A stretch of 46,969 nt of DNA from a virus (Duplodnaviria > Heunggongvirae > Uroviricota > Caudoviricetes): the IMG/VR virus record IMGVR_UViG_3300045988_152627, one strand, 5' to 3'. A model generated the notes under the pieces. The model was not told the origin of the DNA. It did not search any database and saw only the letters and a list, made by a program, of their open reading frames with translations. Of the stretch, positions 26,084 to 46,077 are shown piece after piece. Made by a program: the position numbers and the translations under genes. Position 1 is the stretch's first letter. Every line of letters starts with the position of its first letter.

Positions 26084-26159
26084 TTGGTGGCCCCTACCGG
26101 ATTTGAACCGATGACCGTGCGATTATGAGTCGCCTGCTCTAACCACTGAGCTAAGGGGC
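26084..26159 (-). tRNA. tRNA with CAU anticodon, most similar to tRNA-Ile2 (ileX-type); elongator Met not excluded
   Basis: 76-nt cloverleaf GGCCCCTTAGCTCAGTGGTTAGAGCAGGCGACTCATAATCGCACGGTCATCGGTTCAAATCCGGTAGGGGCCACCA: 7-bp acceptor stem, D and T arms, CTCATAA anticodon loop, encoded CCA. Confidence 0.85.
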
Positions 26160-26329
26160 CATATTTGATCTGTTTGTCTGGTGTGGCGCCGCGCACGAAA
26201 ATCCCAGCCAATAAATTCAGGATTTTTGGGCGCGGCGGCATATCAGACAAACATGGTTGATGCGTGCGCCCATGAGAAAAGCGCATAGAATGTTGTAACT
26301 ATATATTTATATAATTATAGAAATATATA

Positions 26330-37279: not shown

Positions 37280-37295
37280 ATTCAACCATAAAAAA

Positions 37296-37311
37296 GGCCC
37301 CCGAAGGGGCC
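37296..37311. terminator. Bidirectional terminator hairpin GGCCCCCGAAGGGGCC
   Basis: Perfect GC-rich hairpin flanked by an A-run upstream and T-rich sequence on the opposite strand. Confidence 0.55.
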
Positions 37312-37877
37312 TAATCGCTACTTGCTGCTAATGTTTATCGTCACATTCAGAGCGTTATCAGTAATCTTCCAACCCTCCCCATGTGGCGTAAACAAAGCCC
37401 CAGTAACAACGATAAAAATACACATACAGTATTTTTTCATTGTATGGCCCTTACAGGCCGTTTCACGGCATCCCCACCGACGAAAACAACGCGAGAGCAA
37501 GCACGGCTGCTTGTGCTTGCATGTACGGCAACAGGAAATCCTCCCCTAAAGTCGGTGCCCGGGTGCGAATCGGCGGGAAGGTCCACAGGTATTTTACGAT
37601 TATTTTAAGATTAGTAATAGGAAATAAATTAAACGAAAAAACCAGTTTATTTTCACAAAATCAGTAACCTACCCACAATCTGTGAGTTTGCAGACACAAC
37701 AAGAACCACAATTTTTTGAAGCATAATAGTGGACTATTATTACCTTTTGGGTAAAATCAACTTGCTGCTTGTGCTTGCGTGGTTGTTTATACAACAACGT
37801 AATGCTGAAAGGACCGCGAATCCGATCAGCACGAAAGAACCGTCCTCAATAGGGCGGTTTTTTTGTTTCTTCACTCA

Positions 37878-38569: not shown

Positions 38570-38864
38570 TGTCTCTGTTAAAATCCCGCCGTATTGACAT
38601 GAATGCGCCATTGGTGGACACTTTCCGAGCCGTAGCAAAATCTACGGTCGGGATTAGCCTCCTGAATAACACGATGGCGCATACCGCGTTAGCGGTTTTT
38701 TTATGCGTAGAGCACTGTTACGCCCAAATTATGGTGGGTCGTACAGGGGCGGAGAAATCCGCGCCGGTTCGTCATTGTGTCCGGTAAGGCTAACCCTGTA
38801 CGGCTCACCACCATTTGATTAGCCTCGAATGGCGGTGATAGTTCCATATATTGGAGATATCACA

Positions 38865-39056
38865 ATGACAAACTTACCCCATGACTATTACGTCAACCTC
38901 GTAAAGATCCTTCTCAAGAAAGCCTCATACGCCGATAAATTCCGCCTGGCTGAAATAATCGAGCGCGAAGCTATGCGCATCGCCAGCAACGATAACGCTG
39001 TTTCTGACGCAAAAATCTCCCTCGTAACCAAAGTAGTTATGGGAGGTGCAAAATGA
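38865..39056 (+). CDS. Hypothetical small protein, coupled to the antirepressor
   Basis: 63 aa from ATG 38865 (RBS GGAGAT); stop overlaps the antirepressor start. Confidence 0.35.
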   Translation: MTNLPHDYYVNLVKILLKKASYADKFRLAEIIEREAMRIASNDNAVSDAKISLVTKVVMGGAK

Positions 39057-40195
39057 AAACGCTTCCGACCGTTAACACCCTACAGCCTATCCTGCATAAC
39101 CAGATCCCCGTTATCACCACGGAGCTGCTTGCCAAACTATATGGCTGTAGCGTCGAATGTCTTCACAGAAATCACCACCGTAATAAGTCCCGGTTTACAG
39201 AAGGAAAACATTTCATAGTTGTAAAAGGTACAGATCTCCAAAGTTTGAAAATCTCTTTAAGAGATTTTCAAACCATCGCGAATAACGTTAGAAAGCTCAT
39301 CCTCTGGACCGAACGCGGGGCTGCACGTCACGCTAAAATGCTCGAAACCGATCAGGCATGGGATGTATTCGAACGGCTGGAAGACTGCTACTTCAACCAG
39401 AACGCGCAAACGGCCGCGACCGTAACCGTCTCACCAAACAATGCTCGTGAGGTTGTCGATACGCTCAACGCTAAACCAATGTATTACGTTAAGGTGTGCA
39501 ACAACGAGCCACTCACAACCTCAGCCGATGTTGCCCAAGCATTCAGCACCACAAACAATTCCATCGTTATGGCCATCGATGCGTTACGTATTCCTCGCAC
39601 AGCTGCGGCGCGTCACTTCTTTAAAGAACAACGACCGCTGGAAGGAAGCGACCGCGAAATAACAATCTATCGCATGACAAAAGACGGATTTACCTTGCTC
39701 ATGGAAAGTATCGACGGTCCAGGCGTGAAGGATATCAAGCTGGCCTACATTGAAGCCTTTAACGCTATCAGCAGCGTGTTAAAGGCAGAATACGAGCGAA
39801 TGCTATACAACCGACTGTATCAGGAAACAAAGATTATCCGAACGGCAACAGAACATCATCGGCTATTAACGGAACCAAACTACCGCAAGACACTAATCAA
39901 AGAATTTGACAAGGCGACGGAGAAAACTAAAGCGGCACTAAATCTACCAACAATGACTAAAGATGATGTGATATCAGCCTTACTTCTTGATCTGCTCAGA
40001 AACGCCAGAGCACTTATCAGTTTTGACGAAAACCTGAATCCTCAGCTCAAGCTACTACCACCGACAGGCAAAGTAGTCGACCAAGCAGATCACAACAGCA
40101 TACTCAGCGTACTGGATGCAAACCTGCCAGCCAGGACACTACAGGAGCTGATAAAAATATCTGCGGATAAACTGGCCGCAGGTGCAAAACCATAA
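39053..40195 (+). CDS. Phage antirepressor (KilA-N/ORF6N-like N-terminus plus Rha-like domain)
   Basis: 380 aa; N-terminal ITTELLAKLYGCS...KHFIVVKGTDL and central TSADVAQAFSTTNNSIVMAIDAL resembling the Rha motif. Confidence 0.65.
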   Translation: MKTLPTVNTLQPILHNQIPVITTELLAKLYGCSVECLHRNHHRNKSRFTEGKHFIVVKGTDLQSLKISLRDFQTIANNVRKLILWTERGAARHAKMLETDQAWDVFERLEDCYFNQNAQTAATVTVSPNNAREVVDTLNAKPMYYVKVCNNEPLTTSADVAQAFSTTNNSIVMAIDALRIPRTAAARHFFKEQRPLEGSDREITIYRMTKDGFTLLMESIDGPGVKDIKLAYIEAFNAISSVLKAEYERMLYNRLYQETKIIRTATEHHRLLTEPNYRKTLIKEFDKATEKTKAALNLPTMTKDDVISALLLDLLRNARALISFDENLNPQLKLLPPTGKVVDQADHNSILSVLDANLPARTLQELIKISADKLAAGAKP

Positions 40196-40229: not shown

Positions 40230-40865
40230 TTAATATTTCGGTGTAATCAGTAGCGATACATGCCCTGATTTGTCACGAGAAACGTAATACTCGCCTCTCT
40301 TAGTCTTGAACTCAGCTTTCTGCATATCTGATTTAACAATCTGCTCTAACTGCGCAATCACGGTGTCTCTTTCACTTGACGCATCCAAGACTTCAACTGC
40401 TACGGCCATAGAAAGCAAGGAATCAGAGTTAGGCTTGGATACTCGCCATAATAACTCAGAAATCTTCCCATCCTTATCAACTCTAGCCCGACCGTTAACA
40501 GATGAGTTGATGGCAAATTCAACGGTGTTGTTACCTTGTTTAACAGACTTAATTCTTATAGTGGAGGTGGCTTTTCCTGATGTAGCGATGCCTTCAAGGT
40601 CATCATTATATAACTGCTTAAACTTATCTACGGTCACACCATCAAAAGCAGCTCCGGTAGTAGCCGCAGTGTTGGAGTCTTCTGGGATCAAGGTCACAGC
40701 CGCAAGAGTATTAACAACTACAAAAGTAGCAATCCCGAGAAAGCCACTCACTAAAACAGCTTTGAACTTACCACCAGAAGACGAGGCACATTGTTTCCGA
40801 TATGCGCCACGAACTACGAAGAAACACAAAATCAGGCTAATAATAAACGCCACCAGCATCCCCAT
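40230..40865 (-). CDS. Membrane-anchored protein of unknown function
   Basis: 211 aa; two N-terminal TM helices followed by a soluble Ser/Thr-rich domain. Confidence 0.45.
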   Translation of the reverse strand: MGMLVAFIISLILCFFVVRGAYRKQCASSSGGKFKAVLVSGFLGIATFVVVNTLAAVTLIPEDSNTAATTGAAFDGVTVDKFKQLYNDDLEGIATSGKATSTIRIKSVKQGNNTVEFAINSSVNGRARVDKDGKISELLWRVSKPNSDSLLSMAVAVEVLDASSERDTVIAQLEQIVKSDMQKAEFKTKRGEYYVSRDKSGHVSLLITPKY

Positions 40866-41500
40866 AGAAATCTCCTTTTAGATATAAGGGTAAAGCAATA
40901 TCGTATTAGATCTTCCTTAAGACACAACCCCCCCTCCCCCCATACAGGGTGCCCTTTACCGGAGTTCCGGCCCCTTCTCAAAAGCATCAAAAAAAGCTCG
41001 AGATCGAGTACCGGAACTCATGCCACCAGATAGCTCCACATCGTTTCCAATGCTTCGCCGCCGTGTGCGCCCTGTGGCCCACAATCATGCCATTGGTCGT
41101 CTGATATACCTTCTTCTGCTCATTGAGCACAGGCGAGTTGTCGCACTCCTGCCTTTCTCAGACTCGACTTAGTTTAGATCGCTGTTCCTGGCTTGCGTCA
41201 GCACACTTTCCCCTTGTACGCATACCCGCGCGCCACTTCGCCCAAAAACACCGAACCCAACGAAGTAGCAAAGACAACGACGCGAGCGTGAGTCTGAAAC
41301 GTGCACCAGTAAAAAAGGGGTTGCAGGCGCAAAAAGATTTGATTATCTTTAGACGCAAGAAAGCCGCCCCAATCAAGAGGTGTCTTTTTAAATCCAGCCT
41401 ACCAAGCAAGATTTAAATTTCAGACTGAAAACCGCCCGGCAAGGCGGTTTTTGTCTTTCTGGCGCTTACATTACACCACCAGAAAACGATCCGTAAAGGA

Positions 41501-41773
41501 TCATTTGATCCCTTGTTCCAATTCTGCCGACACTTTAACCTTTTCCCATACAAGGGTTTGCAGCCTTAACAGAATCGCATCTTTATCAAGGTGTGAAAGA
41601 TCCTTAACCATATCGTCAAACGACAGAACGCGAATGGCCATCTCAATGACCCTCGGCGGCTCCCCCTTCTCATATCGCTTATATGTAGCCAACGATATCC
41701 CAAACTCTTCGGCTGCTCGCTCCTGCGTCCAGTTCATCCCACGACGCCATAATTTCAATTCGTAACCCGTCAT
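41501..41773 (-). CDS. XRE-family HTH regulator
   Basis: 90 aa; HTH WTQERAAEEFGISLATYKRYEKG; divergent from 41875..42300. Confidence 0.6.
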   Translation of the reverse strand: MTGYELKLWRRGMNWTQERAAEEFGISLATYKRYEKGEPPRVIEMAIRVLSFDDMVKDLSHLDKDAILLRLQTLVWEKVKVSAELEQGIK

Positions 41774-44423: not shown

Positions 44424-44469
44424 TTATTATATCTACGATGGTAGGAAATCTTTTCCTATGTGGCAATAG

Positions 44470-45054
44470 AAATTTACTACATTGCGTATAAGACAAGTTT
44501 TCTATGTCTAATAGGAAATGATGTTTCTTATGTTTTATCGCGTTCTGATGGCTACTGTGTGCGTATTTATCGACGTTTATTGATAAGGCTCACCCCTTCC
44601 TCCTGCAAAGCCCGGCCGTAGGCCTTATTTCGGCCTTATATAAATTGATTTTGTATAGTTCGAAACGCGCCGTTTCGAAAAGGATGATCAGGCTGCACCA
44701 TGCCTCCGGCAAGTGCCGGAGGAGGTATATTTGAGCGTAGCGACTCGAACCGGCGCGAGCTTTAGCTCGCTGCAAGGGCGAACATATTCACAGGCAAAGC
44801 CTGTGTAAGTTAAATAAAGAAAGTCTTAATAAAAGAAAGTGATTTTGCATTTATTTGTTTAGTGCATCTATTATAAAAAACCATTTGCATATACATATCA
44901 AAACTGTGGATAACTTGATTAGCTGATGCCTGTAAAGGCGATATTTACGCTGTGTTCAAGTTTAGAAAAAATCAATTCAGCCTGTTTTTTGAACAGATAT
45001 TTTATTGCGACGTAGATAATCCTCCGGTAAAACCGGATTCATCATTCAGGTGGG
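44470..45054. promoter_or_regulatory. Candidate plasmid replication origin (oriR-like) downstream of repA
   Basis: Non-coding region with an AT-rich stretch (44800..44900) next to a consensus DnaA box; position relative to repA as in IncFII replicons. Confidence 0.5.
44905..44913 (-). promoter_or_regulatory. DnaA box (TTATCCACA on the minus strand)
   Basis: Plus-strand TGTGGATAA, exact match to the DnaA box consensus. Confidence 0.6.
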
Positions 45055-45903
45055 TTAATGCTGGAGTGATTTCCAGGTCTTTCTTAGCCTGTTATAACGC
45101 TGCTCAACGAGGGATCGTAAATATGCAAGGTCAGCTCCAGGATACATGCCATCAGCAAATTCCTGGCTAACCTCTCTAGTGATTTGATGACGAAGTTCGG
45201 CCTCTCCCTTTTCCCGAACAAGACGCGCAGCTCTCTCCGCTGCTTTCTGTTTTGCCTTTATCTCTCTAGCCGTCTTCCTCTGACGCCATACATTCTCCAT
45301 CTGCTCCTGAATAACAATACGCTTATAATCAGCCTCCGTTATCGCTTTTTTAAGCCGTTCGCTATTCTTCGCATTGAAGTAATTAAGTTTCTGGCTAACC
45401 GCACGTCTCCATGCTTGTTCAGTAATACCAACGGTTTCCAGAAGTTGATCACGAATCTCTATTTTCGCTGGCCAATACTGTTTATTCACCCGATCCCAGC
45501 GACGTTCATAATCAATAAAACCTAACGCTTTCAGTTGCGACAACGCCCTTGTACAGCGCGTTATAGACTTGTTCCCAGCTTCGGATACGGTAGACAGGCC
45601 GCAAAAATCAGCCAACGCCTCAGCACTGGCCAGAACCCGCTTAGAAATGATGTTTACATGGTGCAAAATCGCAGCAATCACAGCATTAATCGCCCGACGA
45701 CGATGCTCGTTTATCCGGCGTTTCCGCTCTGACGGTTGATTAACGTAGAACGCAACCTCACACGTAAGATCACGACCATTAATGCGCTGTAAAGCATCAG
45801 ATAACACCAGCGGCAGCTTGTGCGTATGGTGCTTTGGAGGCTGGAACTCCGGCGACAAATTACAAACGTAAGCTGAACGTAGAGACTGCATTGGTCTATC
45901 CAT
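45055..45903 (-). CDS. repA: Plasmid replication initiator RepA, IncFII RepA1 family
   Basis: Segment RRAINAVIAAILHH...GNKSITRCTRALSQLKALGFIDYE parallels RepA1 RRAIDALLQGL...GKLSITRATRALTFLSELGLITYQ; start taken at the internal ATG 45903 (about 282 aa); the longer ORF to 46041 overlaps the antisense RNA. Confidence 0.8.
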   Translation of the reverse strand: MDRPMQSLRSAYVCNLSPEFQPPKHHTHKLPLVLSDALQRINGRDLTCEVAFYVNQPSERKRRINEHRRRAINAVIAAILHHVNIISKRVLASAEALADFCGLSTVSEAGNKSITRCTRALSQLKALGFIDYERRWDRVNKQYWPAKIEIRDQLLETVGITEQAWRRAVSQKLNYFNAKNSERLKKAITEADYKRIVIQEQMENVWRQRKTAREIKAKQKAAERAARLVREKGEAELRHQITREVSQEFADGMYPGADLAYLRSLVEQRYNRLRKTWKSLQH

Positions 45904-45947
45904 ATGTTCGCTCTTGCGTCCACGGAAAACCAACGTATAATGGGAGT

Positions 45948-46036
45948 TGTCGAGGCGCCCATGGATTGTTGTTGGTTTTTGTTTCTTTCCGTGGATGTCG
46001 CAAGAAGCCCGCAGATTTATCTGCGGGCTTTTTGTT
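45948..46036 (+). ncRNA. CopA-like antisense RNA candidate (countertranscript to the repA leader)
   Basis: Plus-strand promoter TTGCGT-N16-TATAAT (45914..45941), stem-loop AAAACCAAC/GTTGGTTTT, and terminator hairpin AGCCCGCAGA-TTTA-TCTGCGGGCT plus T-run (46006..46036). Confidence 0.5.
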
Positions 46037-46077
46037 TCCATATCTGGTCACTTTCCAACCAGACACCCACAATCATA

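Follow-up and report, generated by a model that had tools for sequence, protein, structure and literature searches.

Phage-plasmids have to alternate between two modes: plasmid replication under tight limits and fast replication as a phage. Phage P1 has dual replicons, a plasmid replicon (oriR/RepA) and a lytic replicon (oriL/RepL), and its lytic origin needs the RepL protein. In ColE1-type replicons, an antisense RNA with three stem-loops covers the 5′ end of a long RNA, and its terminator abuts the start of that RNA; in ColE1, the long RNA (RNA II) measures ~550 nt and the antisense RNA (RNA I) ~100–108 nt (PMC8683028). A stretch of rG in the ColE1 transcript that faces a dC stretch in the template is essential for the persistent hybrid, or R-loop, that gives rise to the primer (PMC4412123). 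In human mitochondria, a transcript becomes a replication primer at the CSB 2 element, whose commonest form is G6AG7, via a very stable R-loop or a hybrid G-quadruplex (PMC5027508, PMC3488243).

The locus described here lies in a viral DNA of 46,969 nucleotides (IMG/VR record IMGVR_UViG_3300045988_152627), the whole of which we call the window. A preliminary description made from the sequence alone had singled out positions 40866–41500 as either a structured non-coding RNA or the remnant of a decayed gene. Matches to this 635-bp stretch occur in 72 complete E. coli genomes at 95–100% identity, almost always on circular plasmids of ~48 kb, and also in three Yersinia myophage genomes and a few Salmonella and Klebsiella plasmids. 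The related records hold P2-like tail and head genes alongside ParA, a HigBA-type toxin–antitoxin pair and RepA, which identifies the element as a phage-plasmid; members of the family range in size from 47 to 57 kb. The group has been named the “p-p47 family” in a 2026 preprint, according to which the plasmid copy number of 1.2–2.6 is set by an IncFII-type RepA/CopA replicon and altered by RepA/CopA mutations, typing tools detect no replicon, and the resistance genes carried have a dosage tied to copy number (bioRxiv 10.64898/2026.08.19.745698). Annotation and Pfam reveal no replication protein other than the IncFII RepA, no relaxase is annotated in the element’s records, and mobilisation genes are absent near the block. 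Rop was not found by tblastn. The block region itself carries no annotation in any related record examined.

We conclude that the block is most likely a distant, previously unrecognised ColE1-type replicon kept as a core module of the phage-plasmid. Its predicted parts and their surroundings are listed below in window coordinates.

~40912–41565, no strand assigned: conserved non-coding module, candidate ColE1-type replicon (alignment of relatives)
40912–41463, minus: predicted RNA II-like preprimer transcript, ~550 nt (consensus fold and alignment to ColE1-family RNA II)
41470–41502, minus: P2, putative preprimer promoter, with −35 TTTACG at 41497–41492 and extended −10 TGgTGTAAT, hexamer at 41475–41470
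41501–41773, minus: gene of a 90-aa HTH_3 protein, directly upstream of the preprimer and co-oriented with it
41321–41349, plus: P1, putative promoter of the RNA I-like RNA, TTGCAG, 17-nt spacer, TATCTT (read from the sequence)
41356–41459, plus: RNA I-like antisense RNA, 107–108 nt, with a ~6-nt 5′ tail and three stem-loops (predicted folds)
41359–41388, plus: first stem-loop (SL1) of the RNA I-like fold
41389–41415, plus: second stem-loop (SL2) of the RNA I-like fold
41422–41456, plus: third stem-loop (SL3) of the RNA I-like fold, the terminator with its U-run
41291–41299, minus: segment complementary to 41418–41426, inside the RNA I target zone (repeat and predicted pairs)
41232–41269, minus: hairpin in which lineages differ on both sides of five pairs (covariation); absent from the metagenome copy L053
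41038–41053, minus: GAAA-loop hairpin in which two pairs show fully compensatory changes, aligning with the GGAAAC hairpin of ColE1 RNA II
40962–41019, minus: long 3′ hairpin of 20 pairs with a U-rich inner loop (inverted repeat GAGTTCCGG / CCGGAACTC)
40948–40974, minus: segment aligning with the G-run and origin of ColE1, GGGGCCGGAACUCCGGUAAAGGGCACC versus GGGGGGCGGAGCCUAUGGAAAAACGCC in ColE1 (global alignment)
40928–40941, minus: G6AG7 tract at the preprimer 3′ end (C7TC6 on the plus strand), candidate R-loop anchor
45055–46041, minus: repA, IncFII-type (Pfam IncFII_repA, E = 1.3e-43), the known plasmid replicon of the element

The edges of the block were set by aligning copies from E. coli, Yersinia phages, Salmonella and metagenomes. 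On the left, conservation sets in sharply near 40912–40925; on the right, the block enters the 3′ end of the HTH gene. The limits first given for the stretch need two corrections: its opening ~50 bases (40866 to ~40911) are part of the variable cassette next to the block, and in the alignments the conserved unit runs past 41500 to ~41565, inside the HTH gene. With 52.1% GC against 44.4% for the whole window, the block is GC-rich as originally noted; the flanking genes, which had been called low in GC, have ~43–45% and are not especially low. E. coli and Salmonella copies are 88.6% identical over the block and 72–80% over the flanking genes, and the block is found in every one of the 72 E. coli genomes that bear the family’s terminase gene. 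It is a core module of the family, not cargo. Variation within it is patchy, with a 59-nt core that has one variable position and some short patches that vary at half of theirs. Judged by these patterns, the block appears to be selected as a nucleotide sequence; recent recombinational exchange could partly lie behind its higher identity.

On the right, the last ~65 bases of the HTH gene (41501–41565) are near-identical between E. coli and Salmonella and the rest of the gene is only ~70% identical; the near-identical end marks the breakpoint of a recombination, or else sequences ahead of P2 constrain it. The stop codon of this gene overlaps the first GATC of P2. Its product is a neighbour of the block and possibly a regulator, and we found no convincing operator-like repeats common to P2 and the HTH promoter. 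HTH homologues in Serratia and Providencia lack the block (HTH-anchored search of species-representative genomes), and no distant copies were gained by this route. On the left, the slot at 40230–40915 encodes a 211-aa protein here, and its equivalents in the relatives L002, L003, L004 and L005 encode a 62-aa protein, Rha or a 214-aa protein, a pattern that suggests a hotspot of cargo exchange, with its boundary at the end of the replicon.

Searches for further copies added little divergence. Three viral-contig scans returned the same nine loci and no new copies, and a metagenome scan added only three moderately divergent ones. Two metagenome copies carry deletions: L053 (positions 263–754) lacks 50 nt corresponding to window 41222–41271, which removes the covarying hairpin wholly, and L061 (positions 2434–2952) lacks 22 nt corresponding to 41145–41166. 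These may be real variants or assembly artefacts.

The structure of the ~540-nt region is clearest on the minus strand. Its consensus fold reaches −172.6 kcal/mol, versus −116.6 kcal/mol for the plus strand, and comprises 160 pairs; 99.6% of the cells are paired. Both sides have changed in seven pairs, compared with 2.9 ± 1.1 in shuffled alignments and with none of 500 shuffles reaching seven; about five lineages are available, so that few independent events underlie this covariation. A control in which the pairing partners were slid gave 0–3 such pairs. The seven double-changed pairs cluster in the hairpins at 41232–41269 and 41038–41053. About two dozen more toggle between Watson–Crick and G–U on the minus strand, where the plus strand would have A–C mismatches. 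The structural signal of the minus strand is consistent and strand-specific, though few independent events contribute to it. The same holds locally for the long 3′ hairpin. The inverted repeat pointed out in the preliminary description (GAGTTCCGG / CCGGAACTC) is exact, at 40962–40970 and 41011–41019, and all three varying pairs of this hairpin retain pairing on the minus strand only (A–U to G–U, U–G to C–G and G–U to A–U).

The predicted preprimer would start at 41460–41463, and its 3′ end or the switch from RNA to DNA would fall somewhere in 40912–40955. At the level of sequence, the features of a preprimer are present: P2 aligns with the P2 of ColE1, the distance from the start to the end of conservation is ~550 nt, and the stems between them covary. 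The −35 of P2 is bracketed by GATC-N7-GATC, with the same GATC spacing as in ColE1 (GATCTTCTTGAGATC versus GATCCTTTACGGATC in ColE1). Both hexamers of P2 and both GATC sites are invariant, and its spacer varies at 4 of 16 positions. P1 behaves alike, with two invariant hexamers and a spacer that varies at 2 of 17 positions. All four promoter hexamers and the G-tract are constant, and variation falls in the spacers and in the loops of the antisense RNA. Neither promoter is called by a promoter scan, and both are weak by consensus.

P1 lies ~105 nt upstream of the plus-strand terminator and, measured from the RNA II start, within ~5 nt of the position of the RNA I promoter in ColE1. The terminator noticed in the preliminary description is confirmed as a hairpin at 41426–41453 followed by TCTTTCT. 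The same three stem-loops and the short 5′ tail are predicted in five lineages. Differences between lineages fall on 3 of the 8 positions in the SL1 loop and on 8 of 15 at the top of SL2, where pairs have been swapped in compensatory fashion, from GC/GC to GGU/ACC to GGUU/AACC. In one copy (L075), two changes preserve the pairing of the terminator stem on the plus strand only. The conserved T-run is the one on the plus-strand side of the terminator hairpin; its minus-strand counterpart is shortened in the Salmonella copies. The predicted RNA thus has the properties of an antisense inhibitor of the ColE1 type: 107–108 nt, a tail, and three stem-loops whose loops vary while their stems are kept or compensated. 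Judging from this distribution of changes, the RNA II-like preprimer and the RNA I-like inhibitor are most likely both under selection. The segment at 41291–41299, in which a Salmonella change retains a U–G pair on the minus strand, is a candidate for the alternative pairing in the preprimer that binding of the RNA I-like RNA would block.

At its 3′ end, the preprimer would carry two G-rich elements. As in ColE1, the origin-equivalent segment comes after the hairpin with the U-rich loop. Within it, GGGG at 40974–40971 aligns with the G6 of ColE1, and the G6AG7 tract follows ~30 nt further on. The C-run reported on the plus strand is confirmed as C7TC6 at 40928–40941; it is the sole such run in the window, where 0.12 would be expected by chance. 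The composition of the tract is invariant, with a G7/G8 length polymorphism in the second G-run (40927–40934) of L005 and L060, and conservation between lineages ends ~16–18 nt beyond it. GGGG at 40974–40971 and the invariant G6AG7 at 40941–40928 together provide the rG stretches expected of a ColE1-type replicon. The tract is also reminiscent of human mitochondrial CSB 2: in both cases the G6AG7 is in the transcript and the run length is polymorphic. The two share no homology and their polymerases differ; this is a functional analogy at most. With ColE1 and CSB 2 as guides, we regard G6AG7 as a putative R-loop anchor. A conserved primosome-assembly site was not found downstream, because the left flank is variable.

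To place the block relative to known replicons, we built an nhmmer profile from nine ColE1-family origins (ColE1 and eight diverse relatives) and ran it on the window and three other loci. Its best match in the 47-kb window is at 41524–41428 on the minus strand (E = 2.6e-4); the match has only 12 bits, is confined to P2 and the first stem-loop, and is owed in part to a generic terminator hairpin. The −35 and −10 of ColE1 fall on TTTACG and TGTAAT, in agreement with the hexamers that had been chosen by eye, and the Salmonella and L021 copies are matched at the same place. A global alignment of the minus strand, spanning P2 through the G-tract and beyond, with the corresponding span of ColE1 gave z = 6.5 relative to dinucleotide shuffles. 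Across all nine family origins, z ranged from 4.2 to 7.7, and from 3.3 to 5.5 for the RNA II body alone. Shuffles that kept local composition (10–30-nt windows) still left z = 3.0–5.0, and the wrong strand and four control stretches scored −0.4 to 1.3. Similarity therefore extends through the origin region, from P2 to oriV, but it is distant: the block is further from ColE1 than the Aeromonas replicon is (Aeromonas versus ColE1, z = 6.4–10).

Standard searches do not see this relationship. Rfam reports no family at gathering score in 40866–41500, and the covariance-model search that had been proposed for the stretch would on its own have missed the system. At E up to 10, the only Rfam matches in 40866–41500 are terminator-driven ones to RNAI and Phe_leader. 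The block scores 18.1 bits (plus strand) and 20.3 bits (minus strand) against the RNAI model (RF00106), below its threshold of 47; ColE1 scores 73.8 bits and Aeromonas pA8AHP2 55.1 bits. Used as a blastn query against phages and plasmids, the block matched the same phage-plasmid family only, plus one 38-nt Aeromonas stretch; this search recovered no ColE1 plasmid and no small plasmid with this origin alone. Conversely, with ColE1 as the blastn query, none of these phage-plasmids was among the matches listed. The Aeromonas match is to the small plasmid pA8AHP2: over 38 nt, and in the same orientation, the block is ~92% identical to the RNA I terminator of this plasmid plus the bases that run into its RNA II start, whereas no similarity can be detected in the remainder of the preprimer (z = 0.7).

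Compared with ColE1, pMB1 and p15A, the block shares a colinear set of parts: P2 with GATC-N7-GATC, a ~550-nt preprimer, a 108-nt antisense RNA with three stem-loops and an abutting terminator, the hairpin with the GGAAAC loop, and a last hairpin, with a U-rich loop, before a G-run. The position of that hairpin, ahead of the G-runs, is the position of the last hairpin in ColE1 RNA II. In contrast to these plasmids, the block falls below the Rfam RNAI threshold, is unseen by blastn and MOB typing, has neither Rop nor mobilisation genes, carries the extra G6AG7 ~30 nt past the ColE1-equivalent origin position, and lacks a conserved region downstream of the origin. It also resides in a 48-kb, low-copy phage-plasmid with an IncFII RepA rather than in a small multicopy plasmid. 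Members of the ColE1 family are usually small, multicopy, often mobilisable and often equipped with Rop, a context typical of the family and not strictly defining; here the elements have 47–57 kb and a copy number of 1.2–2.6.

The block thus has the anatomy and geometry of a ColE1-type replicon, invariant promoter hexamers, compensatory changes, and weak but significant similarity to the ColE1 family on the correct strand. From these features we infer that both RNAs would be transcribed, and that R-loop formation, priming and origin activity would follow. The reading as a structured non-coding RNA, offered in the preliminary description, is supported, in the more specific form of two predicted overlapping antisense RNAs of ColE1-type architecture, one RNA II-like and one RNA I-like. 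Homology of the block to ColE1-type replicons is likely. As an explanation of the whole locus, a diverged, RNA-primed theta replicon of the ColE1 type inside a phage-plasmid is probably correct. That the block still acts as an origin is plausible and, on balance, slightly more likely than not.

By analogy with ColE1, the following mechanism is plausible. Host RNA polymerase would start at P2 (minus strand, ~41463) and produce a structured preprimer of ~550 nt, the counterpart of RNA II. Its G-rich 3′ end (GGGG and G6AG7) would stay paired to the C-rich template as an R-loop. The hybrid RNA would be processed, in ColE1 by RNase H, and extended by DNA polymerase I, with the leading strand running leftward. 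The 108-nt antisense RNA from P1, the counterpart of RNA I, would pair with the first ~105 nt of the nascent preprimer. This pairing would cause the preprimer to misfold so that no primer forms, and would thereby set both the initiation frequency and the specificity of incompatibility.

When such an origin might be used can be approached from the known replicon. With a copy number of 1.2–2.6 that shifts when RepA/CopA is mutated, a constitutively active multicopy ColE1 origin is unlikely. RepA is the only replication protein that the element encodes, and under RepA/CopA control the element is kept at 1–3 copies, which leads to the hypothesis that the second origin serves a mode other than that of a plasmid. 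Our guess is that the second replicon comes into use once the element has escaped the tight control of IncFII RepA/CopA, lytic growth being one such situation. A more specific version, which we regard as tentative and rather doubtful, is that of a lytic or escape origin that would require host enzymes only, would be silent under RepA/CopA at 1–3 copies and would fire on induction, with G6AG7 acting as a site of transcription stop and as R-loop anchor in the manner of CSB 2. The preprint describes a single high-copy mutant without a repA mutation, which has a SNP in an unnamed regulator (bioRxiv 10.64898/2026.08.19.745698); this mutant is of interest as a lead. The arrangement resembles phage P1 in that a low-copy plasmid replicon is accompanied by a separate second origin, and in that a C4 RNA and antirepressor module of the P1/P7 type lies near the block. 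It differs from phage P1 in that the putative second origin would need no element-encoded protein and in that its lytic use is hypothetical.

If the ColE1-type reading is true, a protein-independent second origin with its own antisense control would constitute a concrete switch and would explain how the element is amplified without replication genes beyond RepA. If, in addition, the block is a lytic origin, this would be the first known case of ColE1-type priming in a phage, and a bacterial system that has converged with primer formation in mitochondria. Replicon typing tools miss the putative origin in the block entirely, and a determinant of incompatibility of the RNA I type could govern the coexistence of family members.

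The main rivals to this replicon are an exapted pair of regulatory RNAs and an inactive relic. In the former case, the two RNAs would descend from a ColE1 replicon that no longer primes and would serve, for instance, to control neighbouring genes or phage development. Structure, covariation and the antisense pair are all real, the low copy number is under RepA control, two RNAs of the immunity type (C4 and isrK) are encoded 2 kb upstream, and the HTH gene reads straight into the block, all of which are compatible with a regulatory function. Two features are, however, specific to primer formation: the ~550/108-nt geometry, which has been retained, and the G-tracts, which do not vary and sit exactly where conservation stops on the 3′ side. 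Moreover, the downstream gene is a variable cassette that lies on the opposite strand in one relative, and a regulatory RNA would thus have no constant target in cis. We therefore consider loss of priming in favour of regulation unlikely.

A second possibility is that a ColE1-like plasmid once fused with an ancestor of the phage-plasmid and that its inactive replicon has been carried along passively. Cointegrates of ColE1 replicons with larger plasmids do form (PMC8683028), and the absence of Rop and mobilisation genes nearby would fit such an origin. A relic should decay faster than coding genes, yet the block is more conserved than they are; its hexamers are invariant, its stems change in compensatory fashion, its variation is concentrated in loops, and all 72 family members in E. 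coli retain it. The conservation pattern disfavours passive carriage, which we consider improbable.

A further reading reduces the block to untranslated ends alone, namely the 3′ UTR and terminator of the HTH gene together with the promoter or leader of the left-hand gene, and the hairpin at 41426–41453 could also terminate minus-strand transcripts of the HTH gene. The left-hand gene, however, differs between relatives while the block is constant, ~540 nt of conserved, covarying structure far exceeds what a UTR needs, and the T-run that is kept lies on the plus-strand side. This explanation is very improbable.

Protein coding fares worst. The two ORF calls in the stretch do overlap in antisense as originally reported (97 aa on the plus strand and 83 aa on the minus strand), and the preliminary judgement that neither is a convincing gene is upheld. 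In Salmonella-type copies, stop codons and frameshifts interrupt both ORFs, and a copy with 99% identity has lost the start codon of one. Pfam has no match to either, and substitutions are distributed over the codon positions as 21/25/19, without codon periodicity. Although both reading frames are present in this copy, their disruption in sister lineages and the higher conservation of the block relative to neighbouring genes make a decayed gene, the other option initially entertained, or a real small protein extremely improbable. Among other kinds of element, we rejected a type I toxin–antitoxin system, as a small hydrophobic ORF is absent nearby, and a retron, as a reverse transcriptase is absent nearby. 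A tRNA/tmRNA scan returned nothing in the region. The GC skew is uniformly negative across the window, and an origin cannot be located from it.

Several further observations concern the rest of the element. Directly downstream of repA lies an ORF-free stretch of ~620 bp (44430–45050), AT-rich and with a trough of 29% GC, which probably serves the RepA replicon as its oriR. The preprint predicts a CopA RNA ahead of repA (bioRxiv 10.64898/2026.08.19.745698), whereas Rfam at gathering score reports none there. Upstream of the block, Rfam and Pfam delineate the following features.

37290–37586, minus: ryfA-like RNA (143 bits)
38629–38702, plus: isrK RNA
38727–38815, plus: C4 antisense RNA
39053–40195, plus: ORF6N/Rha antirepressor-type gene, just downstream of these RNAs

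Together, the RNAs and the ORF6N/Rha gene look like an immunity module in the style of P1 and P7; the RefSeq records annotate none of the three RNAs (ryfA-like, isrK and C4). In one E. coli genome, both the block and the terminase gene occur on the chromosome. The plasmid NZ_CP032086.1 (94,204 bp) has the block twice and seems to be a dimer or fusion. Finally, a tRNA with anticodon CAT is encoded at 26085–26160 on the minus strand; ARAGORN identifies it as tRNA-Met, and its RefSeq equivalent in NZ_CP069971.1 is annotated as tRNA-Ile (lysidine-modified CAT).
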